Shown: positions 49,773-63,960, counted from the stretch's first letter. The stretch: DNA of 64,000 nucleotides from a virus (IMGVR_UViG_3300032320_001595:17612-81611), one strand, 5' to 3'. Notes: a model not told the origin generated them from the letters alone. Numbers and translations are program-made.

Positions 49773-50153
49773 CTAATTCCAATCGATATTAGATGCTACT
49801 GAAGATGACACCTTTGATTTAAGTAATAGGTCTTTTCCAATATGCTGCGCCTTTACCTCAAAGGAATACTTTCTTTCCCCGCTACTTGTATCTATCCATG
49901 AAGTTTCTTTAATAACTCCATTGACAATCACTTGCTCCCCGCGATTAAATTCACCAGAAATATTTTCTGCCAGACGATCCCAAGCAGTAATATTCCATCC
50001 AGATGTATCATGGTCTTCCCATTCACCAAAAGCATTCTTACGGCGGTCATTAGTGATTAGTCTAAATCTTGCTACTGACGTTCCACTCGGCAGAGTCTTA
50101 AACTCTACATCATTTGCCACTCTACCAATTAAAGTAATATTAGGGTTAGACAT
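49773..50153 (-). CDS. ssb: Bacterial-type single-stranded DNA-binding protein (OB fold)
   Basis: NITLIGRVANDVEFK...VARFRL...WNITAW..LAEN...RGEQVIVNG. Confidence 0.88.
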   Translation of the reverse strand: MSNPNITLIGRVANDVEFKTLPSGTSVARFRLITNDRRKNAFGEWEDHDTSGWNITAWDRLAENISGEFNRGEQVIVNGVIKETSWIDTSSGERKYSFEVKAQHIGKDLLLKSKVSSSVASNIDWN

Positions 50154-51127
50154 TATTCTCCTTCCGTTAAAATTTCAAAAAGTCTATTCCATTCTTTTGC
50201 TCTACGCTCCCAGTTATAATACTTATTGAAGTAGTCTGACTGTTCGCGTATTAATTCTTGATTATCTTTTGTCCAGTAATTATCTATTTGTTCGTTAAGA
50301 AGTTCTGCATATGTATTAGCGATTTGCTCTTCATTTGGTTTAATTGTACACATTTTTGCATATGCTGCACCAGTTTCTGGTAAAGCCCCGACATCAGTAG
50401 TAACTAAGTTACATCCTGCTGCGCCTGCCTCAATCATTGAAAGGCAGGCGGTTTCTTCAAAAATGCTAGGGTAGGCAAATATGTGAGCATCTTGTACTGC
50501 TTTATGAATTTCATTATTTTCGGCGTACCCAATGTAATTGACACCTTTTGTCTCACGGGCGCGATTGAATAGATCTTCATATACCCCATAATAATGCGCC
50601 TCGTAGCCTGATCCATATACAGAAGTTGATGAATATACATCTAACTCAATATCATCGCGGTCAAGTTGCTCCATAACATCTAGCAAAATGCTAAGACCCC
50701 TAAATGGAGTTGATGTGTAAATTAACTTTAACTTGCCGTCTTTTGATTTTGGTTTAAATTCTATTGGTTCTATGGCATTACGAATAACATATGCGTTATG
50801 AAGCGGAACCTGAAAGAGATACCTAAATTTCTCTAGTTGCCAATGTGACACATAAACTGTTGCATCAATCGACTTCATAAAAGCATTATCCTTCATTGGA
50901 GCAAGAGATTCATCTGAATAATTTAGATGCTGCCATAGAATATTCTTTTTAGTAAATCTAACTTTAGATGGATCTGGAGTTGCAACTAGTAAATTTAAAT
51001 TATCATATTCTGAAAATTTAGAATGTTTAATCATTCCATCTTTTAGCAACTCCGTTCCTCCGCGAGCGGGTTTTACATTACTGTCGCTAGAAATTCTCTG
51101 CAACCAATCAGCCACTGCTGTCTCCAA
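50153..51127 (-). CDS. Glycosyltransferase (GT-B, GT4-like)
   Basis: RGGTE, YVSHWQ, NAIEP, YTSTPFRGL, FAYPSIFEETACLSMIEAGAAG. Confidence 0.85.
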   Translation of the reverse strand: METAVADWLQRISSDSNVKPARGGTELLKDGMIKHSKFSEYDNLNLLVATPDPSKVRFTKKNILWQHLNYSDESLAPMKDNAFMKSIDATVYVSHWQLEKFRYLFQVPLHNAYVIRNAIEPIEFKPKSKDGKLKLIYTSTPFRGLSILLDVMEQLDRDDIELDVYSSTSVYGSGYEAHYYGVYEDLFNRARETKGVNYIGYAENNEIHKAVQDAHIFAYPSIFEETACLSMIEAGAAGCNLVTTDVGALPETGAAYAKMCTIKPNEEQIANTYAELLNEQIDNYWTKDNQELIREQSDYFNKYYNWERRAKEWNRLFEILTEGE

Positions 51128-51632
51128 ACTTTGCTATAAAAATGCCTGTGCATTCAAATTCTTGATACTCTACTATAGAGTGAAATTTTTCTAATACTAG
51201 TTCTGTTGACCAGTCTTCTTCTTCATGCACCTCATAAGGATTATCATCTATTTCATCCTGAGGCATATGAATAATAGGAATGCTTATGAGTGCATACTTT
51301 GCCTGCTCCGCCATTTTATTCCACACATCTATGGCATCTTCCATAGGCATATGTTCTAGAACATCCCCAAATATTACCAAATCGTATGCAAAGTTGTCAA
51401 TATTTCTTACATCTTCAACATAAATATTCCTATATTTATTTTTAAGATTAAATCTTTCAATGTACGGCTCCCATACTTCTACCGCATCAAAGATAATCTT
51501 TGGTTTATAGGGAAACATAATTGTAGCATACACACCCCCACCCGCGCCAACATCTAATACAGTTGATGGATTAATATCAATTATTTTAGATATAGCATAG
51601 GGCTTTCCCTCTGGCATTGAATTACCACTCAC
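51108..51632 (-). CDS. Class I SAM-dependent methyltransferase
   Basis: VLDVGAGGG, DAVE, DLVIFGDVLEHM. Confidence 0.85.
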   Translation of the reverse strand: MSGNSMPEGKPYAISKIIDINPSTVLDVGAGGGVYATIMFPYKPKIIFDAVEVWEPYIERFNLKNKYRNIYVEDVRNIDNFAYDLVIFGDVLEHMPMEDAIDVWNKMAEQAKYALISIPIIHMPQDEIDDNPYEVHEEEDWSTELVLEKFHSIVEYQEFECTGIFIAKFGDSSG

Positions 51633-52360
51633 AGGTAACTCTTCTTGCTCCAGAATTGACTCTTATATGATCTAACAATCTTAGACTTTAATTTAAAGCC
51701 ATTTTTCTTATTGGCATCCTCATCAAACTCTACCTGTGATGATCTCCAGTCCTCTCTTTTGAAAGGAATCATTTGACATATGGGAGTCCCTGCTTCAAGA
51801 ATGAAAATCTCTTCTTTAATTGTGTTAAGAAGTTGGAAAGGAAATTCGACTCCTAGTTCATAGGAGTCTGTATCTACCACCCCAGAAAAAGTTCTGAATG
51901 GAAGGTCGTGTCTATTAAGTGGGTGAGTGAATAAACAACTATAGCCCTTGGGGGTTATTGCCCTCCAGCCAGGACTCCATTTAAGTAAATCCATTCCGCC
52001 ACCTACTGGAGCAGGCAGACCAGGAGCCTGATCTGGACCGTGAGAGCCTATAAAATTAACATTGGTCGCCCACCGCACATTAATTCCTTTTCCTGGATGA
52101 TTTCTAAATTCTAGGTCGAATGGCAGAACAAACATATATCCAGATGTGAGTGCATCAAGGAACGGGGAGCATCCCTTAAGAGTAAGATTGCTTACCGCTA
52201 CTCCGTTTTTTGATAACCCAGTTATTTTTTCGCCGTCCATATGAACAGGCATCTTTTTATACCAGTCTGGGATAGACTGTGCTGCTGGCTGCGGCCTTTC
52301 AAACAGAAGTTCTGCCTCATGACTGAATGGCTCAAATTCTATCTTCATGGCTTTACCCAA
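51629..52360 (-). CDS. Conserved phage protein with possible dUTPase-like beta fold
   Basis: TLKGCSPFLDALTSGY, TPKGYSCLFTHP, SGVVDTD, AGTPICQMIPFKRE; family recalled from aquatic phages, function unproven. Confidence 0.5.
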   Translation of the reverse strand: MGKAMKIEFEPFSHEAELLFERPQPAAQSIPDWYKKMPVHMDGEKITGLSKNGVAVSNLTLKGCSPFLDALTSGYMFVLPFDLEFRNHPGKGINVRWATNVNFIGSHGPDQAPGLPAPVGGGMDLLKWSPGWRAITPKGYSCLFTHPLNRHDLPFRTFSGVVDTDSYELGVEFPFQLLNTIKEEIFILEAGTPICQMIPFKREDWRSSQVEFDEDANKKNGFKLKSKIVRSYKSQFWSKKSYL

Positions 52361-53016
52361 TTCAACTTAAATGTCTTTTGATGTAGAACTCTTACAGATG
52401 GGTCTACCCAAATGTCAAATCCTGACTTGATCGCTTTTGTACACCATGAAAGGTCTTCTCCAATAAGAAGGAAATCTTCAGTTGTTTCCCCTGTTTCTTC
52501 ATCTACACTAGGAACGCTTTCTGGTCCAAACCAGGGTCTGGGCATATTCTCAAATACCCCTGATTTTACTGCAAGGAATCCAAATCCACATCCTGCTACT
52601 TTAAAAGGCTTATGATACTGATCAAGAAGTTCTTCTGGCATCATACCGCCGCGAGGTTGTTGATAAATCGGAATGTGTCTGTCTTCCATGAGATAGCATC
52701 CAGAAATAATTTTCTTATCAGACTTATATAGTCTAAAAACGTCGGCGGGACTCCATGCAATATCTGAATCAATCCACATAATCATGTCATAGGTAAATTC
52801 ACCGCTACATGGCTGAGTCATTTTTACATTATTTGTATCGTATCCACCAATGGTAGATTCTCTAGCCATGGCAACAAGTGACCCACCCTGACTAAGAAAA
52901 TTCCAACTTAGTCGCTCTTGATTTAGGGCATTAGTGGTAATAAGCAGACTCCTGAGGTAGTCTGGAGTAAAAGAATTTGCTGGAGTAGCAAACACTATAT
53001 TAAAATGTGGTTTCAT
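52345..53016 (-). CDS. Glycosyltransferase (GT-A fold, DxD)
   Basis: MWIDSDI DxD motif, GFGFLAVKSGVFE, GEDLSWC, VLH. Confidence 0.78.
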   Translation of the reverse strand: MKPHFNIVFATPANSFTPDYLRSLLITTNALNQERLSWNFLSQGGSLVAMARESTIGGYDTNNVKMTQPCSGEFTYDMIMWIDSDIAWSPADVFRLYKSDKKIISGCYLMEDRHIPIYQQPRGGMMPEELLDQYHKPFKVAGCGFGFLAVKSGVFENMPRPWFGPESVPSVDEETGETTEDFLLIGEDLSWCTKAIKSGFDIWVDPSVRVLHQKTFKLNWVKP

Positions 53017-53676
53017 TTATCCCCTTATAGCGATCTTCTTATGATGACATACTTTTATGCTGGGGTCAAGATAAATTTTATATCCTGCTTCCCCCGCTTT
53101 TTTGCACCAGGAAAAATCTTCTCCCCAAGGTATATACATCTCTTTAGTTTTATCTTCATTCTCTATTTTTTGAAATACTACGTCGAACCATGGGCGAGGA
53201 ATATTTTCAAATACCCCAGATTTCATTGAAACAAATCCGAATCCTACTGCAAAGACCTCAAACGGGTATTCTTTTCTTTTTAATAAGTCGTGGTCAAAAT
53301 AAATATCGTCTTCTTTGAAACTAAAGAGCGGTACGTTTTCTTCATTATAGTAGACTCCAGAAACTACATCGTATGACGATTCGTACAACTTCATAAATTG
53401 ATCTGGTTCCCAAGAAATATCTGAGTCTATCCAAACTATTTTGTCATACGTTACCTGACTGTTTACTGGTTCTGTGGCAAAAGCATGAAGAAAACGTGAT
53501 CCCATTATTGTTGCTTCCCGCGCTGCATTTACTTGAGAGGAATACTCATTTAGATATAAATAAGATATGCCTATTTTTTCTAAATGGGAAATAGTTGCAA
53601 CAAGACTTCTTACATATTCTGCCTCCATCATTCTTCCAGGAGTGCAAATTAATACATTATAGTGGGGCTTCAACAT
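53017..53676 (-). CDS. Glycosyltransferase (GT-A fold, DxD), tandem paralog of 52345-53016
   Basis: VWIDSDI, GFGFVSMKSGVFENIPRPWF, GEDFSWC. Confidence 0.78.
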   Translation of the reverse strand: MLKPHYNVLICTPGRMMEAEYVRSLVATISHLEKIGISYLYLNEYSSQVNAAREATIMGSRFLHAFATEPVNSQVTYDKIVWIDSDISWEPDQFMKLYESSYDVVSGVYYNEENVPLFSFKEDDIYFDHDLLKRKEYPFEVFAVGFGFVSMKSGVFENIPRPWFDVVFQKIENEDKTKEMYIPWGEDFSWCKKAGEAGYKIYLDPSIKVCHHKKIAIRG

Positions 53677-54487
53677 TCCTCCAAAATTCTAAACCGCTGT
53701 ACTTGTTAAGAATATATGGTGAAAGGTACTCCCCTATATTGATTCTACGATGATCAATTGACCGACGAACGTCGTGTAAACCCTCAAGGCCATATACTTT
53801 GTCATCTTCTGGAGTTATATTGACAATATTATTGTAATTATGATCAAAGTGTTCTAGGCCAAGGAAATCATAGATGCCCTTGATAGTTTCATCTGTCCTG
53901 CCAACCAAATTGTCATACTCAACAATGTGAAAATATTGTCTATTTTCTTCTAGCATCGCATAGGCAATTCCATACAAACACTCATCAATAAGTCCTTTTG
54001 GACGCATCAAATGGTCACATCTAATTTCATCAGGATGGCGGTAATAATAGAACTCCTGCCTTGCTTCTATTTCCTGATCAATAAATGAAGTCTTCTGTGG
54101 ATTTTGATTAATCATATAGATAAAAGAGGCAAGAATTTCATTTATGTTTCTCACCGTCAAAATTAACTTAGGGTCATAGGGGAGATTTCTTAGTAGTGTT
54201 CCAAAGTTTTCTTTATTTGACCATGATCGTGACTTATCAATAATATTAGGCTTATTTATATCTGAATAATAATTTTCTAGGACCCCATGAACCGTGGGAG
54301 AAATGACATGAGGTTTTGGGTATGCATTATATTGTTCAGACGCTAAAATACTACGTTCAAGATTAACCATCATCCCACACATGGGGGAGTTTGGTCCTGA
54401 ATAAATTTCTGGGTTTTGATTTAAAATTGATGATAAAAGTGTGCTTCCAGACCTTGGAAGGCCGGAAAGAAAATAAAACTTACTCAA
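53657..54487 (-). CDS. Sulfotransferase-family protein
   Basis: N-terminal PAPS-binding loop GLPRSGSTLL; IDKSR, LTVRN...ILAS, VEYDNLV. Confidence 0.85.
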   Translation of the reverse strand: MSKFYFLSGLPRSGSTLLSSILNQNPEIYSGPNSPMCGMMVNLERSILASEQYNAYPKPHVISPTVHGVLENYYSDINKPNIIDKSRSWSNKENFGTLLRNLPYDPKLILTVRNINEILASFIYMINQNPQKTSFIDQEIEARQEFYYYRHPDEIRCDHLMRPKGLIDECLYGIAYAMLEENRQYFHIVEYDNLVGRTDETIKGIYDFLGLEHFDHNYNNIVNITPEDDKVYGLEGLHDVRRSIDHRRINIGEYLSPYILNKYSGLEFWRNVEAPL

Positions 54488-54500
54488 TGGTTTTTCCTAT

Positions 54501-57500
54501 CTACTCTAGGCCAATTATATCATTTATTTGAGAAGTGTTCTGGGGCGAGGTTCTTATTTGTCCTGAATATCCACCAGCAACCCATAGGCCGTTGCCGTAG
54601 GAGATTGAGGATATATTTGTAGTGCCAAAGTTTGAGGTCTGGGTTGTCCAGGTGACACCATTGGTTGAGGTACGCATTTGACCAGCATATCCACCAGCAA
54701 CCCATAGGCCGTTGCCGTAGGAGATTGAGGATATATTTGTAGTGCCAAAGTTTGAGTTTACAGTTGTCCAGGTTGTGGAATTGGTAGAAGTTCTCATTTG
54801 TCCAGAATCTCCAACAGCAATCCACAGCCCATTAGCATATGCGAGCGAACGTATGCTTCCTGAATTAAAGTTAGATGTTTGTGTAGTCCAGTTAATAGCA
54901 TCTGTTGATCTACGGAATGAATAATCAGTAAACCCAGCAGCCACCCAGATACCGTTGCCGTAGACGATAGATTGAACTTGTGTACTTCCAAAGTTTGAGG
55001 TTTGTGTTGTCCAGGTTACACCGTTGGTTGAGGTGCGGATTTGTCCACCAGTACTACCAGCAACCCACAAACTATTTCCATATGCTATCGTGGTAATAAT
55101 TGAGGTACCAAAGTTTGAGGTCTGGGTTGTCCAAGTAGCAGTGTCTGTTGATGTGCGGATTTCTCCTGCATTTCCACCAGCAACCCACAGGCCGTTGCCA
55201 TAGGCTATGGAGCGGATGATGGTGCTACCAAAGTTAGAGTTTTGGGTGGTCCAGGTGGTGCCATCGGTGGAGGTGCGGATTTGTCCTGTGTTTCCACCAG
55301 CAACCCACAGGCCGTTGCCGTAGTCTATGGACCGGATGGTCGTAGTGCCAAAGTTTGAGGTCTGGGTTGTCCAATTTACTCCAGTATTAACAGTATCTGG
55401 AGAACTATAAGTACTACTATTTGTGACGGTAGTCCATATAGTTAAATCAGTAGACGAATATACAGCATTATTTCCTTGAATTTGATAGGTGCTGCCAAAT
55501 TTTGCCATTTTTTGTAGGGAATCATTAATTAAAGAATAGGGCAAAGAGGTTCTTAATTGGCCTGCGTTACCTGCTGCTATCCATAGGCCATTGCCATAGG
55601 CTACGGAGCGGATTAAGGTAGTTCCAAAGTTAGAAGTTTGGGTTGTCCAAGTAACGCCATCGGTGGAGGTGCGAAGTTGCCCTTGCTCTGCTGATGCTAT
55701 CCATAAGCCGTTGCCATAGGCTATGGAGTGGATGGTGGTGCTACCAAAGTTAGAGTTTTGGGTGGTCCAGGCAACACCATTAGTGGAGGTTCTCAGTTGT
55801 CCTACAACGCCTCCTGCTATCCATAGGCCGTTGCCGTAGGCTACGGAGCGGATGCTGGTGCTACCAAAGTTAGAGGTTTGGGTTGCCCAGGTTATGGTGT
55901 CGGTGGACGTACGGATTTGGCCTGTGTATCCGCCTGCTATCCATAGGCCGTTGCCATAGGCTACGGAGTTGATGGTGGTGTTGCCAAAGTTAGAAACTAC
56001 TGATACCCAGGTTGTATTGTCTGTAGATGTTGAAATATTTCCTAAAGTAGTTACCACCACCCACCTATTACTATTATGCGCCACAGATGTAATACCGTTT
56101 GTAGTTAATCTATCTTCTCCGTCCCAGGTGACGCCATTGGTAGAGGTGCGGAGTTGTCCTGCGTTACCTCCTGCAATCCATAGGCCATTGCCATAGGCTA
56201 CGGAGAGGATGAGGCTAGAGCCAAAGTTGGAGGTTTGGGTAGTCCAGGTTACGCCATCGGTGGAGGTACGGATTTGGCCTGTGTAGCCTCCTGCAATCCA
56301 TAGGCCATTGCCATAGGCTACGGAGTTGATGATGGTATTTCCAAAGTTAGAGGTTTGGGTGGTCCAGGTAGTGCCATTGGTGGAGGTACGGATTTGACCT
56401 GTGTAGCCCCCTGCAATCCATAGACCGTTGCCGTAGGCTACGGAGTTGATGATGGTATTTCCAAAGTTAGAGGTTTGGGTGGTCCAGGTTGTGCCATTGG
56501 TGGAGGTGCGGATTTGGCCTCCGCTACCTCCTGCTATCCATAGGCCGTTGCCGTAGGCTACGGAGCGGATGGGGCTGCTAAAGTTAGAGGTTTGTGTGGT
56601 CCAGGTAACGCCATTGGTAGAGGTGCGTATGTCTCCTGTTAATGCGCCTGCTATCCATAGGCCGTTGCCGTAGGCGACGGAGGGGATTGCGTTGATGCTG
56701 CCGATGTTAGAGGTTCGGGTTGTCCAGGTAACGCCATCGGTGGAGGTGCGGATTTGGCCTCCACTACCTCCTGCTATCCATAGGCCGTTGCCATAGGCTA
56801 CGGAGTTGATGGGAGTGCTGCCAAAGTTAGAGGTTTGGGTGGTCCAGGTAACGCCATTGGTGGAGGTTCTCAGTTGTCCGGCGTAGCCTCCTACTATCCA
56901 TAAGCCGTTGCCATAGGCTACGGAGCGGATGGTGGTACCAAAGTTGGATGCTATTCCACTAGTTCCAATATTAAAATCTACTGTATTCCAAGTAATGGTG
57001 TCTGTGGAAGTTCTACCCTGACCACTATACGCACCTGCTATCCATACGCCATTGCCATAGGCTACGGAGTAGACGCTGACGCTGCCAAAGTTAGAGTTTT
57101 GCGTAGTCCAGGTTACGGTATTGGTGGAGGTGCGGATTTGACCTACACTTCCTACTGCTACCCATAGACCGTTGTTATAGCCTACGGAGAAAATTACACT
57201 ATTTCCAAAGTTAGAGGTTTGCTCTATCCAAGTAGCACCTTGAATCCCCCCAGATAAAGAACTAGCGAATACTTGAGTGACCCATGTACTTCCATCTGTT
57301 GACAGCCAAAATGTTCCAGAATTTGCAACGGCAAAAGCGGTGGAAGCAGTAGAAAACATTCCATTTACCGCCGTTGGTCCAGATACTGTTGTCCAAGTTT
57401 CTGCATTTGTTGAACTTAAAGTAGATGATGCTGATGAAAAGGCGTAAAAAGAATTATTAAAAGAATGTAATTTATAGTTGTTGGGCAGTATTGATGAGTT

Positions 57501-58577
57501 TTCAGAGGTACGGAGTTGACCGCTTGTGTATCCTCCTGCTATCCATAGACCGTTGCCATAGGCGACGGTAGTGATGACGGTGCCACCAAAGCCAGAAGTT
57601 TGGGTGGTCCAGGTAGTGCCATTGGTGGAGGTACGGATTTGACCTTGGTAGCCTCCTGCAATCCATAGGCTATTGCCATAGGCGACGGTAGTGATGCGGG
57701 TGTTGCCAAAGTTGGAGGTTTGGGTGGTCCAGGTAGTGCCATTGGTGGAGGTACGGATTTGACCTGTGTAGCCTCCTGCAATCCATAGGCCGTTGCCATA
57801 GGCTACGGTAGTGATGGTGGTGCTGCCAAAGTTGGAGGTTTGGGTAGTCCAGGTAGTGCCATTGGTGGAGGTACGGAGGGTGCCTCCGTTACCTCCTGCT
57901 ATCCATATGCCATTGCCATAGGCTACGGAGTAGACGCTGACGCTGCCAAAGTTAGAGGTCTGGGTTGTCCAGGTGACGCCATTGGTAGAGGTTCTCAGTT
58001 GTCCTATGACGCCTCCTGCTATCCATAGACCATTGCCATAGGCTACGGAAAAGATGGCGGTGTTGCCAAAGTTAGAGGTTTGCGTGGTCCAGGTCACGCC
58101 ATCGGTGGAGGTACGGATTTGGCCTGTGTATCCTCCTGCAATCCATAGGCCGTTGCCATAGGCTACGGAGCGGATTAGGGTAGTTCCAAAGTTAGAAGTT
58201 TGGGTTGTCCAGGTAGTGCCATTGGTGGAGGTACGGAGGGTTCCTCCGCTACCTGCTGCTATCCATAGGCCATTGCCATAGGCGACGGTAGTGATGCGGG
58301 TGTTTCCAAAGTTAGAGGTTTGGCTGGTCCAGGAAATTCCTAATCTATTATATATAGTATTAAATGTTCCTAAAGATTGTGTTCCTTGAAGTGATCTTAG
58401 AACTACTCCATTACTCAATACCGCCGACCAAATATTATTAGCATAAGCAATTGAATTAACGTTTCCACTAGTAACAGCGGAGGAAATAAAGGTAGTACTA
58501 TTGGTAGCATCTGGATCAAGGTTTATTGTTGCACTTGACCAAGTAATGCTATTTGTAGAATATCTAATTTCTGTCAT
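54501..58577 (-). CDS. Large beta-propeller repeat virion protein (28 repeats of 40 aa in blocks of 7+14+7)
   Basis: Repeat TSTNGxTWTTQTSNFGxxxIxSVAYGNGLWIAGGxxGQIR counted by hand; start ATG 58577 (or GTG 58586). Confidence 0.85.
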   Translation of the reverse strand: MTEIRYSTNSITWSSATINLDPDATNSTTFISSAVTSGNVNSIAYANNIWSAVLSNGVVLRSLQGTQSLGTFNTIYNRLGISWTSQTSNFGNTRITTVAYGNGLWIAAGSGGTLRTSTNGTTWTTQTSNFGTTLIRSVAYGNGLWIAGGYTGQIRTSTDGVTWTTQTSNFGNTAIFSVAYGNGLWIAGGVIGQLRTSTNGVTWTTQTSNFGSVSVYSVAYGNGIWIAGGNGGTLRTSTNGTTWTTQTSNFGSTTITTVAYGNGLWIAGGYTGQIRTSTNGTTWTTQTSNFGNTRITTVAYGNSLWIAGGYQGQIRTSTNGTTWTTQTSGFGGTVITTVAYGNGLWIAGGYTSGQLRTSENSSILPNNYKLHSFNNSFYAFSSASSTLSSTNAETWTTVSGPTAVNGMFSTASTAFAVANSGTFWLSTDGSTWVTQVFASSLSGGIQGATWIEQTSNFGNSVIFSVGYNNGLWVAVGSVGQIRTSTNTVTWTTQNSNFGSVSVYSVAYGNGVWIAGAYSGQGRTSTDTITWNTVDFNIGTSGIASNFGTTIRSVAYGNGLWIVGGYAGQLRTSTNGVTWTTQTSNFGSTPINSVAYGNGLWIAGGSGGQIRTSTDGVTWTTRTSNIGSINAIPSVAYGNGLWIAGALTGDIRTSTNGVTWTTQTSNFSSPIRSVAYGNGLWIAGGSGGQIRTSTNGTTWTTQTSNFGNTIINSVAYGNGLWIAGGYTGQIRTSTNGTTWTTQTSNFGNTIINSVAYGNGLWIAGGYTGQIRTSTDGVTWTTQTSNFGSSLILSVAYGNGLWIAGGNAGQLRTSTNGVTWDGEDRLTTNGITSVAHNSNRWVVVTTLGNISTSTDNTTWVSVVSNFGNTTINSVAYGNGLWIAGGYTGQIRTSTDTITWATQTSNFGSTSIRSVAYGNGLWIAGGVVGQLRTSTNGVAWTTQNSNFGSTTIHSIAYGNGLWIASAEQGQLRTSTDGVTWTTQTSNFGTTLIRSVAYGNGLWIAAGNAGQLRTSLPYSLINDSLQKMAKFGSTYQIQGNNAVYSSTDLTIWTTVTNSSTYSSPDTVNTGVNWTTQTSNFGTTTIRSIDYGNGLWVAGGNTGQIRTSTDGTTWTTQNSNFGSTIIRSIAYGNGLWVAGGNAGEIRTSTDTATWTTQTSNFGTSIITTIAYGNSLWVAGSTGGQIRTSTNGVTWTTQTSNFGSTQVQSIVYGNGIWVAAGFTDYSFRRSTDAINWTTQTSNFNSGSIRSLAYANGLWIAVGDSGQMRTSTNSTTWTTVNSNFGTTNISSISYGNGLWVAGGYAGQMRTSTNGVTWTTQTSNFGTTNISSISYGNGLWVAGGYSGQIRTSPQNTSQINDIIGLE
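54540..55380. repeat. 120-bp coding repeat block, 7 copies (older, more diverged)
   Basis: About 840 bp = 7 x 120. Confidence 0.85.
55545..57237. repeat. 120-bp coding repeat block, 14 copies (one degenerate)
   Basis: About 1690 bp; 14 blades counted in translation. Confidence 0.85.
57500..58340. repeat. 120-bp coding repeat block, 7 copies
   Basis: About 840 bp; columns align every two 60-nt lines. Confidence 0.88.
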
Positions 58578-58578
58578 T

Positions 58579-59778
58579 TTAATCACCGCCTACAAAATAT
58601 GAAGTAAAAGAACCTGCTGATGCAGAGGTTCTCAGGGGGCCTGTGCTTCCTCCTGCTATCCATAGGCCGTTGCCATAGGCTACGGTAGTGATGGTGGTGC
58701 TGCCAAAGTTGGAGGTTTGGGTAGTCCAGGTAGTGCCATTGGTGGAGGTACGGATTTGTCCTGCAACGCCTCCTGCTATCCATAGGCCGTTGCCGTAGGC
58801 TACGGAGTTGATGGCAGTGCTGCCAAAGTTAGAGGTTTGGGTGGTCCAGGTCACGCCATCGGTGGATGTACGGAGTTGACCGCTATCGCCTCCCACCATC
58901 CATAGACCGTTGCCATAGGCTACGGAGCGGATGACAGTGTTGCCAAAGTTGGAGGTTTGGGTAGTCCATGTGACGCCATTGGTGGAGGTACGGATTTGAC
59001 CTGTGTATCCGCCTGCTATCCATAGGCCGTTGCCATAGGCTACGGAGAGGATGGTGGTGTTGCCAAAGTTAGAGGTTTGGGTAGTCCAGGTAGTGCCATC
59101 GGTGGAGGTACGGAGTTGTCCGTATTCGCCTCCTGCAATCCATAGGCCGTTGCCATAGGCTACGGATTGGATGAAAGTGTTGCCAAAGTTGGAGGTTTGG
59201 GTAGTCCAGGTTGTGCCATTGGTGGAGGTACGTAGTTGGCCTGTGCTTCCTCCTGCTATCCATAGGCCGTTGCCATAGGCTACAGAGTTGATGGTAAAAT
59301 TACCAAAGTTAGAGGTTTGTGTGGTCCAGGTAACGCCATTGGTGGAGGTGCGGATTTGTCCGGTCTGTCCTCCTGCAATCCATAGGCCATTGCCATAGGA
59401 TACGGATTGGATGTTGGTGCTAACAAAGTTGGAGGTTTGGGTAACCCAAAAAACTCCAGCAGGTTGAGTATCACCTCCACCATATTCTACAACTTTAATA
59501 TTTCCTGTCATTCCTGTATTTACTGTTGTCCAAGATGTTAAATTGGTGGAGGAAAATAATTTACCACCTTCCGCTGCCACTAATGTAGTAGATGCTGATG
59601 AGATATATTCTATGTCGTTAATTGCACTACCGCCAGCATTAAATCCAGTTATTTGAGCGGTAGTGTTAGTTGAATCAATAGTATAAAGAAGTCCAGATTG
59701 GGTGCCAAAGAGGAACTGTCTTACCCCCGCCGATATTTTTTTAGAACTAGAAAGAATACCTACCCAAATACCACTCAT
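58579..59778 (-). CDS. Beta-propeller repeat virion protein (7 repeats of 40 aa plus degenerate blades)
   Basis: Same repeat as downstream ORF; short hydrophobic N-terminus MSGIWVGILSSS. Confidence 0.85.
   Translation of the reverse strand: MSGIWVGILSSSKKISAGVRQFLFGTQSGLLYTIDSTNTTAQITGFNAGGSAINDIEYISSASTTLVAAEGGKLFSSTNLTSWTTVNTGMTGNIKVVEYGGGDTQPAGVFWVTQTSNFVSTNIQSVSYGNGLWIAGGQTGQIRTSTNGVTWTTQTSNFGNFTINSVAYGNGLWIAGGSTGQLRTSTNGTTWTTQTSNFGNTFIQSVAYGNGLWIAGGEYGQLRTSTDGTTWTTQTSNFGNTTILSVAYGNGLWIAGGYTGQIRTSTNGVTWTTQTSNFGNTVIRSVAYGNGLWMVGGDSGQLRTSTDGVTWTTQTSNFGSTAINSVAYGNGLWIAGGVAGQIRTSTNGTTWTTQTSNFGSTTITTVAYGNGLWIAGGSTGPLRTSASAGSFTSYFVGGD
58625..59455. repeat. 120-bp coding repeat block, 7 copies
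   Basis: Exact 120-nt period visible at 58661, 58781, 58901, 59021, 59141, 59261, 59381. Confidence 0.9.
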
Positions 59779-62246
59779 ACTGTTAAATCACCTATAGCAA
59801 CCCAAGTATCTGTTCCACGTTTTATTAACGTAGCAGCAGACCATTGACCAACAAGTTTTGTCGCACCTCCGCTAGAGTTTAGGGTGACACCAGAAACATA
59901 TGATGCTGTTACTTGTCCTGCACCAGTCTGAAGTATATCAATTTTAGTTCCTGTTGGAAATGCTTGAGTTGAATTAAGTGGAATAACTAATGTTATTGGG
60001 CTAGCGTTATTTAATTCAACCAAGTCTCCAGCATCACTTAATACTAATGAATAAGATGTTCCAGACTGAGCATTAGTAATAATATTCATTGCAGTAGTTA
60101 TAGAGATCTGACCATTTTGTAAATCGGTTAGTGTAGCGCTTGCCGCACCAGTTACAATTCCTGTTAAATTAATTCCAATAATAGGATCGGGTTTATTTGT
60201 AACTCCATCCCAATTAATACTAGAGGCACTTGTTGAAAAACTAGTATTTGTTACAATAGATATTTGTCCATTTGCTAAGTCAGTAAGCGTTGCTGAAGCA
60301 GCGCCAGTAGTATTTCCAGTAAGTGAAACCCCTATTACTGGATCTGGCTTATTTGTAGTGTTACTCCAGTCAAGGTAATATGAACCCTGTTGATTATCTA
60401 ATAAATCAGCGTTAAGATTAGTAACAGTAACGCTAGAAGATACCTCAATTGTCCCTAATTGTAATGTTCCAAAAACAACACTTGGACTAGAATAATCTAT
60501 AACATTATCTACTGGGGGTGGGCCATTTTCTAATAATTTCCATTTATTCTGTGAGGCATCTCTTGCAAATGATGCATGGTAATGCCCAGCGGACGATGTT
60601 GTTCCGTCCCCGTAAGATCCAATAATACCAATATCTACTGCATCCGTCGTATATTGTTCATGGGCTAATTGAATCAATGAGTCTGTCAATGCTAGATTTG
60701 TAGTGCTTAATGTGACGGCGCTTCCAGTAATAACAAGATTTTTAATGTTAACCGTATCATGGAACGTTATTGTTCCTAATTTTTCTTGAACAGCGCTAGA
60801 ACTATTAATAAAGTATGAAGAATTAAATCCGTCTAGAGTGTCTGCATCCACCGCCGCACTTAATGGTCTATAGGTTGCGCTAGCATTTTCAATAGTGAGT
60901 CTTTGTCCTATTGCAGATGCAGATGAATTTAGTTGATGCTGTAGGTTAACTACTCCTGAGATGGCTATTGAACTAGCAGTTTGAGCAAATTCTGTTCTAG
61001 TAACTAATTGTATTTGTCCATTAGTTAAATTATTTAATGTAACTGATGCTGCACCAACTGTATTACCTGACAAAGATACACCAATAATTGGATCTGGTAT
61101 ATCTGTGACTCCGCTCCAATTTATAGAAGATGCAGTACTGGAGTGAGCAGCAAAATTAGTGGCGGTGGTGATAGAAACTTGACCATTATTTAATTGAGAT
61201 AATGTTACAGACCCAGATCCATTTGTATTACCTGTTAATTCAACACCTAAAATAGTATTAGGCTTACTTGTAATATTAAACCAATCAAGATAGAAAGATC
61301 CATGTTGACCATCAAGTAGATCGGCATCTATTCCTGATCCCGATCCGTCAACTTCTTGTATAGCCGTTGCAAGATTTTGATTAAGCCATAAACTAGCAGA
61401 TTGATTGTATGAAATTATATGGTTGTCTGCAATGCCATTTATTAAGACGTCATGTAGTTCACCTAACTCATAACCGTTCTGAACATTAACAAAAAGTTGA
61501 CCGTTGCCAGCATTTGCTCTTTCTACAACACCAATAAAAACTGTATGGTTTGGAGCAGAAGGTTTAACGCTAGTAAATTTACCAGCAGAAGCAGATAGCC
61601 ATAAAGTATCTCCAGGTGAATATGCACTTAAATTAAGTTTATCTACAACGCCAAATACAGTAACAAAACCTTGGCCTCCTGTTGTTATTGCCTCTGCCAC
61701 CACACCTAAAGTTTTAGCGGATGTGGGATCTGCTGTGTTAATTGCTTTTTTAACAGATGCTCTATCTCCTGACGCTCCAAATAAATAAACAACATCACCT
61801 TTAACAAGGGGGGAACCTTCAGCATTTGTTACATATGCATGAACATGCTGTCCGATATGAGCAGTAACGTTACCGCCGATTAAACCAACTTCTGGAGTAC
61901 CAAATGAAGAATTCCATTGGAATCTACCTACGCCTAGAGGTACTGTGCCAGAAAGATCAAGGTCTATAGCGCCAATAGAAAATATTCCAGAAGCACTTCT
62001 AGAAACTAGGGTATTGGGTATATTTAGGGGGGTTCCAGATGCTGATCCGCCTCCGCCACCACTATTTCCATCACCAATTAAAACCCAGGTTGAAGCGGAA
62101 GACCATGCATATAAACTACTAGCACTAATCCATAATTGACCAACGAAAGGATTTGAAGGGGACGCAGAGGAATAGTTAACAAGATTAGTAGAATCGCCAA
62201 CAATAAGGCCGTTCTTAACTTTAAAGTCTTTATCAATGCTAGCCAA
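59775..62246 (-). CDS. Tail fibre-like protein
   Basis: 823 aa Ser/Thr/Gly-rich; KDFKVKNGL N-terminus; ADLLDG..GS.YLD and PDPxIGVxLTGxxTGAASATLTxL repeats; shared C-terminal domain. Confidence 0.8.
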   Translation of the reverse strand: MASIDKDFKVKNGLIVGDSTNLVNYSSASPSNPFVGQLWISASSLYAWSSASTWVLIGDGNSGGGGGSASGTPLNIPNTLVSRSASGIFSIGAIDLDLSGTVPLGVGRFQWNSSFGTPEVGLIGGNVTAHIGQHVHAYVTNAEGSPLVKGDVVYLFGASGDRASVKKAINTADPTSAKTLGVVAEAITTGGQGFVTVFGVVDKLNLSAYSPGDTLWLSASAGKFTSVKPSAPNHTVFIGVVERANAGNGQLFVNVQNGYELGELHDVLINGIADNHIISYNQSASLWLNQNLATAIQEVDGSGSGIDADLLDGQHGSFYLDWFNITSKPNTILGVELTGNTNGSGSVTLSQLNNGQVSITTATNFAAHSSTASSINWSGVTDIPDPIIGVSLSGNTVGAASVTLNNLTNGQIQLVTRTEFAQTASSIAISGVVNLQHQLNSSASAIGQRLTIENASATYRPLSAAVDADTLDGFNSSYFINSSSAVQEKLGTITFHDTVNIKNLVITGSAVTLSTTNLALTDSLIQLAHEQYTTDAVDIGIIGSYGDGTTSSAGHYHASFARDASQNKWKLLENGPPPVDNVIDYSSPSVVFGTLQLGTIEVSSSVTVTNLNADLLDNQQGSYYLDWSNTTNKPDPVIGVSLTGNTTGAASATLTDLANGQISIVTNTSFSTSASSINWDGVTNKPDPIIGINLTGIVTGAASATLTDLQNGQISITTAMNIITNAQSGTSYSLVLSDAGDLVELNNASPITLVIPLNSTQAFPTGTKIDILQTGAGQVTASYVSGVTLNSSGGATKLVGQWSAATLIKRGTDTWVAIGDLTV

Positions 62247-62271: not shown

Positions 62272-63960
62272 TTATGCATCTATTGCAGTACGGACTGCCT
62301 TAATTATAATATTTGTAGATGCAGCATCTGGAGATGAACCCGTTAATGATACTGTTCCGCCAGATTCGGTAGCGCTAAATGTTAGATTGGCAGCACCTGT
62401 TGCAGCATCCATTATTGAGTATTCTGATAGTGAAACATCTGTTCCATCCCACATAACAAGAATCTTTTCTACTGTCATTTTTGTGCCCTGCTTTGCTCTT
62501 ATCGTATATTCAGCGGTGGTGAATGAAGAGACAGCAAAAGTATCAATTGTTGTTGGGGTACTATTTGCTGTTATTGTGGCGGAAGAAGAAGTAATTCTGC
62601 CTTCTGGTAGGTCTACACCAGCAAATGTAGGGGTTGATGTAGTAGCAATATTTTGTGGAAGGCTAAGTACAACAGATGCACTTTCTACACCAGATCCTGC
62701 GACCAAAATTTGGCTTGGCGTGCCATATATGCCATCAACATAGTTACCTGTGGTATCTGTTCCAAGAGCAATAGAATTTGCAGCAATAGTAAGAGCAATA
62801 CTTGCACTATCAAGATTGGATACAGTACCTGTACCAGTAACATCGCCTGTAAAAACAAGATTAAAATCTTTTTCTACAGTTGCAGTCAGCGTGCCAGAGC
62901 CTAGATCTGTTAACGTTACATTGCCTGAAAGGTCGCCACCTAGAGTTATTGTTGGGTCTGGCTTATTAAGAATATTTGACCAATCTACATTAGCATCTAG
63001 TTCTCCCTTTGTTCCACTAAAAACTTCAGATGTATTTGTAGCATCTGGAATAAAGGTAAACTTGCCAGTAGAATCATCGAAACCAAAGAATCCAACTTTT
63101 GCAGAAGTTCCATTATGGTATCTAAATTCAATACCGCGATCTTTATTGTCATCTACAGTTGGAGCGGTGTCTCCACCAAGAGTAAAGATTGGATCATCAA
63201 TAGTAACTACTGTTGAATTAATAACAACTGTAGATCCTGAAATAACAAGATTTTCACCAACAGTTAGTGATCCCGCAATAGTTACATTATCTGGAAGACC
63301 TATCTGAATATTTCCAGTTGAGGCTGATACAGTAATTTCATTAGCCGTTCCACTAACAGATTGAACTCCAGACATTCCAAGAAGTTGAGATACTGAGTAC
63401 CCACCTAGATATTGTGAGTTAAGGTTATTAACCTGTACGGATGATGAAACTACTAATGGTGCGCCTGTAAGAGCAGTTGAAGTAATGGTATTGAAGGATA
63501 CATTTGCTGAAGTGGCTACGTCCTGACCAATTGATATTGCTGATACAGCACCTTCTCCTGCTGAAGAAGATACAGAAACACCTGTTCCTGCAGATATTCC
63601 AGCAATATAGTTGCCTGTTGTATCTGTTCCTAGTGCAATAGAATTTCCTGCAATTGTAGTAGCAATAGAAATTTGACCATTACCAAGATTTGTAAGTGTG
63701 GCGCTAGCAGCACCAGTAATGTCTCCAGTTAATTCAACCCCAATTACTGGATCAGGAACATTAGTGACATTGTTGAAATCTAGGTAGTAGGACCCATGCT
63801 TACCGTCTAAAAGATCGGCAGAAAGGTTGCCAACGTTTGCAGAAGATGTAACGGTAAACGGTGGAAGTGAAGATGTGGTGGATACAATCTGGACGCCTTG
63901 AACATTAGCGCCAGCCACCACACCATTCTTAACAACAAAGTCTTTATTTACAGTAGCCAT
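62272..63960 (-). CDS. Tail fibre-like protein, paralog of 59775-62246
   Basis: KDFVVKNGV N-terminus, same ADLLDG/PDPVIGV repeats, duplicated NSIALGTDTTGNY, DDNKDRGIEF motif, C-terminal TIDTF...AEY..RAKQG domain. Confidence 0.8.
   Translation of the reverse strand: MATVNKDFVVKNGVVAGANVQGVQIVSTTSSLPPFTVTSSANVGNLSADLLDGKHGSYYLDFNNVTNVPDPVIGVELTGDITGAASATLTNLGNGQISIATTIAGNSIALGTDTTGNYIAGISAGTGVSVSSSAGEGAVSAISIGQDVATSANVSFNTITSTALTGAPLVVSSSVQVNNLNSQYLGGYSVSQLLGMSGVQSVSGTANEITVSASTGNIQIGLPDNVTIAGSLTVGENLVISGSTVVINSTVVTIDDPIFTLGGDTAPTVDDNKDRGIEFRYHNGTSAKVGFFGFDDSTGKFTFIPDATNTSEVFSGTKGELDANVDWSNILNKPDPTITLGGDLSGNVTLTDLGSGTLTATVEKDFNLVFTGDVTGTGTVSNLDSASIALTIAANSIALGTDTTGNYVDGIYGTPSQILVAGSGVESASVVLSLPQNIATTSTPTFAGVDLPEGRITSSSATITANSTPTTIDTFAVSSFTTAEYTIRAKQGTKMTVEKILVMWDGTDVSLSEYSIMDAATGAANLTFSATESGGTVSLTGSSPDAASTNIIIKAVRTAIDA

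Follow-up and report, generated by a model that had tools for sequence, protein, structure and literature searches.

Which protein architecture is encoded by the two adjacent, repeat-rich open reading frames (ORFs) at positions 54501-59778 of the viral DNA stretch IMGVR_UViG_3300032320_001595:17612-81611? This stretch of 64,000 nucleotides (nt), hereafter the window, lies inside a metagenome-derived viral contig of 81.6 kb in IMG/VR, which is estimated to be 76% complete. ORF A and ORF B are located on the minus strand, which carries every gene of the window. An original prediction, made from the sequence of the window, regarded the region as nested propellers, with young seven-bladed propellers inserted into an older scaffold of about seven blades. 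The nested reading is supported by a colinear scaffold, by the homology of its segments to blades, by nine cassette sites and by insertions and deletions of whole cassettes. We consider it likely that A and B together constitute a hub of seven degenerate blades with plug-in cassettes of seven blades each, forming a receptor-binding module of 42 blades.

Repeat anatomy and family of the blades

Translation of both ORFs and an anchored parse yielded exactly 35 canonical short-Asp-box blades of 40 amino acids (aa), in runs of 7 (ORF A) and 7, 14 and 7 (ORF B), the block lengths that had been predicted. Every run opens with a W-TTQTSNFG segment, which corresponds to strand 4 of a blade, and closes at GQIRTS (strand 3), so that the predicted limits WTxQTSNFG and GQxRTS hold throughout. 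Within the 14-blade run, B 820-859 is a divergent, AT-rich blade, and another blade contains an insertion of 8 aa. AT-rich, degenerate blade-like segments had been quoted from between the blocks, and each of them was found again. They comprise A 1-110, A 386-399 together with B 1-85, B 362-452, B 1015-1071 and B 1348-1361, and add seven degenerate blades (a-g) to the canonical ones, which results in a total of 42 blades over both proteins.

The motif S-T-[ND]-G-x-T-W is present in 30 of the 35 canonical blades. It fits the short Asp-box consensus S/t-X-D/n-X-X-X-W/f/y (PMC2716378), whereas the classical motif, X-X-(S/t)-X-(D/n)-X-G-X-(T/s)-(W/f/y), has one residue more. In Asp-box propellers, the hairpin joins strands 3 and 4, closure is of the 1+3 velcro type and n-1 Asp-boxes are present (PMC2716378). 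At the sequence level, the runs of the window satisfy both the velcro and the n-1 rule, with strand 4 first, strand 3 last and six Asp-box-like hairpins per seven blades. Because of this arrangement, the two ends of a cassette would meet where the seventh Asp-box hairpin would be, which would be the end geometry needed for insertion into a loop.

In Pfam, ORF B reached 46.8 bits with DUF6242 (PF19755), which is above the gathering threshold of 29 bits, and ORF A, with 27.2 bits, falls just below it. Matches to Kelch_6 (PF13964) with 48.4 and 43.2 bits exceed the cut-off of 25.3 bits, but cover only profile positions 3-28 of 50 and constitute a partial resemblance around the 'GG' turn between strands 1 and 2. 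BNR (PF02012) and PSII_BNR (PF14870) gave no match at E ≤ 1 for ORF A or ORF B; PF02012 is on record for only some of the homologues. Among solved structures, Ycf48 propellers in the PDB are the closest in sequence, with weak E values of 0.012-0.018, and the label 'photosystem II stability/assembly factor-like' is carried by relatives through automatic annotation only. Relatives of the cassettes are annotated in phage fibre clusters, and the isolated Actinomycetia phage DSL-LC01 has a single such propeller among collagen-like fibre genes. Given the weak PDB matches, the missing PSII_BNR match, the automatic origin of the labels and the phage-fibre context, the blades constitute a short-Asp-box, Ycf48-like propeller family of phage fibres and do not belong to the Ycf48 family itself. 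A protein-language-model look-up placed a cassette-free A protein nearest to DUF6242/BNR-like/Ycf48 clusters (score 0.94), which is to be taken as a lead only.

A second architecture with the same blades was observed in four of the related loci (labelled L0nn; homologous proteins are labelled P0nnn), namely at L013:6760-10006, L024:7866-11109, L039:1430-9806 and L043:6282-9215. These proteins are fibre-like, have an N-terminus of the M-N-K-G-T-F type, uninterrupted 7, 21 or 35 blades and a short C-terminal tail, and lack the scaffold. Their genes often occur as three tandem paralogues.

Across blocks, the blades are 75-94% identical in DNA with a period of 120 nt and without block-to-block register. 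An in-register duplication of 7-blade units between blocks was not seen; the best partners of individual blades are scattered across blocks. The pattern fits concerted evolution rather than a recent in-register duplication of seven blades. What the original prediction took for young blades may instead reflect concerted evolution.

The inner blocks had also been described as more GC-rich with sharp boundaries, and the G + C content at third codon positions (GC3) confirmed both points. GC3 is 0.44-0.58 in cassettes and 0.07-0.36 in the scaffold, compared to a mean of 0.30 ± 0.06 (maximum 0.44) for 28 background ORFs. The contrast originates from C-ending synonymous codons and not from the amino-acid content; the share of ACC, for example, is 65% in cassettes versus 14-16% elsewhere. 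GGC (53%), ATC (51%) and AAC (66%) are likewise frequent in cassettes, and these four codons have shares of 13-27% in background ORFs of the same phage and of 4-25% in the scaffold. The same bias was found in L008 and L010 (GC3 of 0.55-0.59 versus 0.18-0.25) and was not seen in L005-L007 or L011. The bias might be due to a founder effect of one amplified blade, to import from a GC-richer source in the recent past or to biased gene conversion.

Scaffold, gene boundary and cassette sites

Searches with both ORFs retrieved several hundred relatives. When these were searched with the spacers only, more than 20 proteins were found to start at residue 1 with the N-terminus of B (M-x-x-I-x-Y-S-T-N) and to end with x-N-D-I-I-x-x, and A-like proteins were found to share a conserved hydrophobic N-terminus and the C-terminus Y-F-V-G-G. 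A library-wide HMMER search with B 4-86 gave 22 matches, and a homologue search with a cassette-free A protein (longer proteins) gave one weak match. Cassettes, defined as runs of at least four hits to an iterated hidden Markov model of the blade, were then removed in silico. The remaining 11 A-like (about 120 aa) and 19 B-like (about 200 aa) proteins are colinear, whatever the former positions of their cassettes. Nature provides the same form: P0243, a cassette-free A protein of 119 aa, is encoded in L007 directly upstream of a B gene, and with the B-like P0198 (809 aa) it makes up a minimal natural pair.

Comparison by hhalign with the profile of a 7-blade cassette yielded 98.0% over 82 columns (about 2 blades) for the A-scaffold profile and 98.3% (E 1.4e-14) over 181 columns (about 4.6 blades) for the B-scaffold profile. 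These spans together with the visible blade a support a scaffold of about seven blades, in line with the predicted nature and number of the spacers. The C-terminal INDII strand is kept in all B-like and fused homologues.

The boundary between A and B separates strands 2 and 3 of scaffold blade c. This blade is continuous in fused relatives, as seen in P0138 (900 aa), P0137 (898 aa) and a 1736-aa protein of L016 as well as on five further contigs; the L016 protein has five times exactly 7 cassette blades. ORF B is in the +1 frame relative to A, about 8 nt separate the stops of both frames, and a Shine-Dalgarno-like element, GGTGA, precedes the ATG at 58577. This ATG is probably the true start of ORF B, giving a protein of 1358 aa. 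Abutting A-like and B-like genes, followed by a sulfotransferase/glycosyltransferase cluster, were present in all 8 loci fetched (L005-L012). Since the genes abut in every one of these contigs, the split at 58577-58581 represents a conserved gene boundary and not an error. A programmed frameshift or a sequencing error at the junction was ruled out by the conservation of the split and the short distance between the stops.

In front of blade a, all A-like and fused proteins have a hydrophobic stretch, M-x-x-[LW]-x-[IV]-G-I-[FL]-[AS]-S (A 1-18, window 59725-59778), to which nothing in a canonical blade corresponds. The stretch might serve for attachment to the fibre or as a plug of the hub.

Across different phages, cassettes occupy nine sites of the scaffold (Table 1). 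Because whole cassettes are present or absent, the protein lengths are quantised, at 119, 399-437 or 694-713 aa for A-like and 447-499, 757-826, 1126 or 1361 aa for B-like proteins. The family is common in freshwater viral metagenomes, with 55 IMG/VR loci. A census of uninterrupted canonical runs in the unique ORFs of these loci counted 54 runs of 7 blades, three of 14, three of 21 and one of 35, with minor numbers of other lengths. One cassette type with conserved linkers (P-D-x-V-N-T-G-x-x-W in front, R-T-S-P-Q-L-Y-N behind) was found at five sites, as would be expected of a unit moving with its own linkers.

The most direct comparison is provided by L012, the contig of a separate IMG/VR record of a near-identical phage. 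Relative to the window, L012 shows an identity of 94.6-98.8% in the upstream (fibre) flank and of 96.6-97.7% in the downstream flank. The A/B region is colinear and 87% identical (window 55421-59624 versus L012:7831-12043), except for two insertions. L012 has 905 nt more, a cassette at a|b, and the window has 894 nt more (54527-55420), which is cassette 4 at g|a1. Both phages consequently have 35 canonical blades, distributed differently. The 14-blade run including its divergent blade is kept in L012 (87% aa identity). This colinearity in an independent contig argues that the layout is not a one-off assembly artefact. Together with the census and the quantised lengths, the exchange of whole cassettes agrees with the proposed check that blade counts of homologous loci change in steps of seven.

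The L012-only cassette is 80-82% identical to window cassettes 1 and 2 and 72% identical to cassette 4, and the relocation of one cassette between a|b and g|a1 was rejected for this reason. Being nearest to cassettes 1 and 2, it points to duplication and loss as the probable process rather than simple relocation. Cassette 4, without a counterpart in L012, is the most diverged, with about 65% DNA identity to the other cassettes and a GC3 of 0.44, and is older or less homogenised. The divergent blade of the 14-blade run (unit 10), which is kept in L012, escapes homogenisation and may mark a structurally special position.

Within the window, entropy peaks at blade positions 10, 12, 14, 28 and 29. 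At these positions, 54-71% of orthologous blades differ between the window and L012, compared to at most 12% at most others; 76 of the 149 differences fall on 5 of the 40 blade positions. The variable positions sit in the 4-1 and 2-3 loops. In a four-strand meander these loops share one face, opposite to that of the 1-2 and 3-4 (Asp-box) loops, so that the variable patch would face away from the tether. The A/B region, at 87% identity, is also set apart from flanks of mostly 97-99% (one upstream segment 94.6%), and the excess differences lie at the same five positions. This could be due to diversifying selection or blade shuffling.

Table 1 Features of the A/B region of the window and scaffold sites occupied by cassettes in the window and in related phages
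Feature	Position	Strand	Content or occurrence
ORF A, 399 aa	58579..59778	-	blades a (strands 2-4), b and strand 1 of c, then cassette 1, then strand 2 of c
Scaffold segment S1, A 1-110	59449..59778	-	hydrophobic N-terminus, blade a without strand 1, blade b, strand 1 of c; GC3 0.21; aligns with cassette-free A proteins; hhalign 98% versus blades
Cassette 1, A 111-385, 7 canonical blades	58624..59448	-	in strand 1-2 loop of blade c; GC3 0.58
A/B junction	58575..58623	-	strand 2 of c (..YFVGGD), TAA, one base, ATG (58577) opening strand 3 of c (MTEIRYSTN)
ORF B, 1361 aa from GTG	54501..58586	-	strands 3-4 of c, d, cassette 2, e, f, 14-blade run, g, cassette 4, a1
Scaffold segment, B 1-85	58332..58586	-	strands 3-4 of c and blade d; GC3 0.18
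Cassette 2, B 86-361, 7 blades	57504..58331	-	between blades d and e
Scaffold blades e and f, B 362-452	57231..57503	-	adjoin d or g directly in homologues
14-blade run, B 453-1014	55545..57230	-	between f and g
Divergent AT-rich blade, unit 10 of 14-blade run, B 820-859	56010..56129	-	GC3 0.30; ≤55% DNA identity to other blades
Scaffold blade g, B 1015-1071	55374..55544	-	PD-x-VNTG-type linker into cassette 4
Cassette 4, B 1072-1347, 7 blades	54546..55373	-	between g and terminal strand
C-terminal strand a1 (..INDIIGLE)	54504..54545	-	candidate velcro strand 1 of scaffold blade a
Cassette site a|b			L012 A, L016, P0007
Cassette site in strand 1-2 loop of b			P0138, P0004, P0033, P0244, A genes of L008, L010, L011
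Cassette site in strand 1-2 loop of c			window, P0058, P0117, P0244
Cassette site c|d			P0082
Cassette site d|e			window, P0009, P0018, P0063, P0164, P0198, P0153
Cassette site e|f			P0006, P0013, P0023, P0051, P0164, P0198
Cassette site f|g			window and L012, 14 blades each
Cassette site in strand 1-2 loop of g			P0078, P0032
Cassette site g|a1			window, P0106

Proposed architecture and its alternatives

In the proposed architecture, the seven conserved, AT-rich degenerate blades a-g would form the hub. ORF A would contribute strands 2-4 of blade a, blade b and strands 1-2 of blade c, and ORF B strands 3-4 of c, blades d, e, f and g and, with its C-terminal strand, strand 1 of blade a. Via the shared blade c and this velcro strand, the two chains would close as one seven-bladed propeller; we infer this ring closure from the fused forms, the conserved split and the complementary strands of the two proteins. 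Cassettes would be located in the strand 1-2 loop of c, between d and e, between f and g, and between g and a1, each folding as a closed seven-bladed propeller of its own. For the 14-blade run, two tandem seven-bladed propellers are presumed, given the precedent of GH74 enzymes and the run lengths of 14, 21 and 35 elsewhere. The hub would hence display five seven-bladed propellers, whose variable faces would bind host surface structures. Recombination would add, remove and duplicate cassettes as whole units, and the blades of the cassettes would be homogenised except at positions 10, 12, 14, 28 and 29, leaving up to 35 variable pockets for glycans or proteins of the host surface.

With less assurance, we incline to a more general view, namely that the system is a plug-and-play display. 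A heterodimeric, velcro-closed hub with loops on both faces would accept cassettes that are copied, moved and deleted within and between phage genomes. With a hypervariable patch of five residues per blade and 0 to at least 5 propellers per hub, valency and specificity would both be combinatorial.

Structure prediction bears on parts of this architecture. The AlphaFold2 model of the fused homologue P0138, based on a 12-row alignment, has a mean predicted local distance difference test score (pLDDT) of 73. Both cassettes reached a pLDDT of 80-93, and VIA-align superimposed the cassette at 484-778 on seven-bladed propellers with a Z score of 31.4 and a root mean square deviation of 2.3 Å over 271 of 286 residues. 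The B part of the scaffold, with a pLDDT of 58-79, shows regular four-strand blades. The homologous cassette is hence predicted as a closed seven-bladed propeller and the scaffold as blade-like. Folding had been suggested as a check of the original prediction; its outcome agrees for the cassette of the homologue, while a hub ring is not established by the P0138 model.

Several observations weigh against the proposed hub. The A part of the scaffold in the P0138 model has a pLDDT of 32-64, and the predicted template modelling score (pTM) of the whole model is only 0.43. The poor values of the A part are probably due to the alignment, which is shallow there and in which blade b of A-like proteins is shifted by one blade. 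A model of window B 362-1072 (e, f, 14 blades and g; 4-row alignment) had a mean pLDDT of 41 and was unusable. Foldseek searches (PDB, BFVD) and VIA-align with the P0138 model matched only multi-propeller proteins or single cassettes and were uninformative on the hub topology. With scaffold fragments alone, matches to propeller families in Pfam stayed below threshold (for e-f, DUF6242 with 21.6 bits and E 2e-4), and a PDB sequence search gave no match. Cassettes of 2, 4, 5 or 6 blades were found in P0251, P0060, P0106, P0116, P0082 and P0014, and in P0066 and P0106 the scaffold between two cassette sites is absent. All sequences originate from metagenome assemblies, where tandem repeats can collapse, and the odd blade counts may result from repeat-mediated collapse, either during short-read assembly or in vivo.

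The strongest alternative, which we nevertheless regard as unlikely, does without a hub. A and B would be separate fibre proteins with about six independent propellers in the manner of beads on a string, and the AT-rich segments would be flexible linkers or small sheets. The pTM of 0.43 and the low confidence of the A part in the P0138 model are compatible with such an arrangement, as are the scaffold-free proteins of L013, L024 and L039, from whose uninterrupted 7, 21 or 35 blades it follows that cassettes can function without a hub. However, blade c is cut by cassette 1 between strands 1 and 2 and by the gene boundary between strands 2 and 3, yet is continuous in P0138. The cassette-free A protein of 119 aa and the B scaffold of about 200 aa are too small to be lone propellers, and the scaffold is colinear and conserved irrespective of the cassette position. 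Furthermore, the C-terminal strand resembles strand 1 of b and g and is retained even when it is 1700 residues away from blade a.

Less likely still is a scaffold that exists but folds differently, as an open arc, as a ring of six or eight blades, or as a ring built by oligomerised A/B pairs. The blade count was obtained by parsing and from hhalign spans of about 2 and 4.6 blades, the AlphaFold2 confidence is too low to decide, and the conserved hydrophobic stretch at the N-terminus of A precedes blade a, all of which would leave room for another fold. The hub of seven blades is favoured over it by the consistent delimitation of seven units in all lineages and by the extra C-terminal strand of B, which matches the strand 1 missing from blade a. 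Finally, an artefact, in which misassembly or a frameshift error would have produced the repeat numbers or the A/B split, is very improbable: although the contig is metagenome-derived, its repeats are 75-94% identical over a 120-nt period and several homologues look collapsed, colinearity with the independent L012 covers cassettes 1 and 2, the 14-blade run and the divergent blade, the stop/start junction is identical there, the split is kept in at least 8 loci and by more than 20 proteins starting at the same residue, and the stops of the two frames are only about 8 nt apart.

Genomic setting and relation to known systems

Comparison with PHROG identified a terminase, a DNA polymerase, a tape measure protein of 2161 aa, a minor tail protein, a major capsid protein, a protease/scaffold protein and a portal protein in the window, and gave no match for ORF A or ORF B. 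Upstream of ORF A are two tail-fibre-like genes (62272-63960 and 59775-62246), the stop of the second overlapping the start of ORF A, so that the order is fibre gene, ORF A and ORF B. In the proposed reading, the virus is a freshwater, siphovirus-like phage with A and B in its tail-fibre operon. We infer from this setting a putative adhesin or host-binding function and a location in the virion, and the architecture is probably a host-binding device that evolves fast.

The middle of the upstream fibre gene (window 60356-61297, inside 59775-62246) is mosaic relative to L012, with 78% identity over 300 nt and the remainder unaligned; both ends of the gene are 95-99% identical. Directly downstream of ORF B lies the sulfotransferase/glycosyltransferase cluster (50153-54487), which consists of a sulfotransferase gene, paired glycosyltransferase-like genes, a methyltransferase gene and a GT-B gene and is syntenic in all related loci fetched (L005-L012). 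Because of this synteny, the cluster may be linked in function to the A/B module and might, for instance, modify the A and B proteins.

The blades are similar to those of Asp-box (BNR) propellers, including Ycf48/HCF136 (PDB 2xbg, 5ojp) and DUF6242/DUF6242_C, in having four strands in 40 aa, strands 3 and 4 joined by an Asp-box-type hairpin, velcro closure of the 1+3 type and n-1 Asp-boxes (PMC2716378). They differ by the short form of the motif, S-x-[DN]-G-x-T-W, and by being near-identical, whereas Asp-box propellers are characteristically irregular. In contrast to these systems, their context is a phage tail-fibre operon and not photosynthesis or glycoside hydrolysis.

In GH74 xyloglucanases ('type 3' Asp-box proteins), 14 continuous blades form two tandem seven-bladed propellers (PMC2716378). 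The window likewise has 14 uninterrupted Asp-box blades, and the GH74 structures 6p2l and 5fkq are among the Foldseek matches of P0138. Unlike in GH74, the 14-blade run would itself be an insert in a loop of another propeller. Non-propeller domains inserted into a propeller are known from 'type 2' Asp-box proteins such as the Vibrio cholerae sialidase (PMC2716378) and from the I-domain of integrin alpha (PMC12422189). As in these proteins, a domain with adjacent ends would be spliced into a propeller loop and leave the propeller intact. In the window, however, the insert would be a complete propeller of the same family, with up to five per hub and a site that varies among close relatives.

Propellers are completed in trans by strands of a partner in Sec13-Sec31 and Seh1-Nup85. 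A and B would similarly form a closed ring from two polypeptides. A further case of completion in trans is Sec13-Sec16 (PMC2922654). The A/B system differs from Sec13 and Seh1 in that the cut runs through a blade (strands 2|3), the second junction would be a single velcro strand, and both split and fused genes occur among relatives. Propeller-type receptor-binding proteins of phages, such as the K1F endosialidase (GH58), also have propeller modules at the distal end of the fibre and are encoded beside fibre genes. The fold search found tail-fibre proteins of Caulobacter phage Percy and Synechococcus phage S-CBWM1 ('BNR repeat domain protein'). In contrast to A and B, the K1F, Percy and S-CBWM1 proteins have one or few propellers in linear order and no arrangement of hub and cassettes.

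Beta-propellers belong to the most thoroughly studied repeat folds. A full-text literature search on phage Asp-box propeller fibres, Ycf48-like phage proteins, propeller insertions and nested propellers found no description of the architecture proposed here. Hundreds of proteins of the family are annotated merely as hypothetical or as 'PSII assembly factor-like', and a correct architectural model would re-annotate many genes. If the hub closes, the system would be a natural case of modular, quantised gain and loss of domains (about 900 nt per step) in a host-recognition protein of phages, an unusually clean system for the growth of repeat proteins and a ready-made multivalent scaffold for protein engineering.

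Taken together, the known elements are non-propeller domains inserted into Asp-box propellers, the tandem propellers of GH74 and the completion of propellers in trans. New, as far as the literature search shows, would be whole propellers nested in loops of a propeller of the same family, with up to five inserts, with positions that vary from one near-identical phage to another and with a hub divided between two genes.

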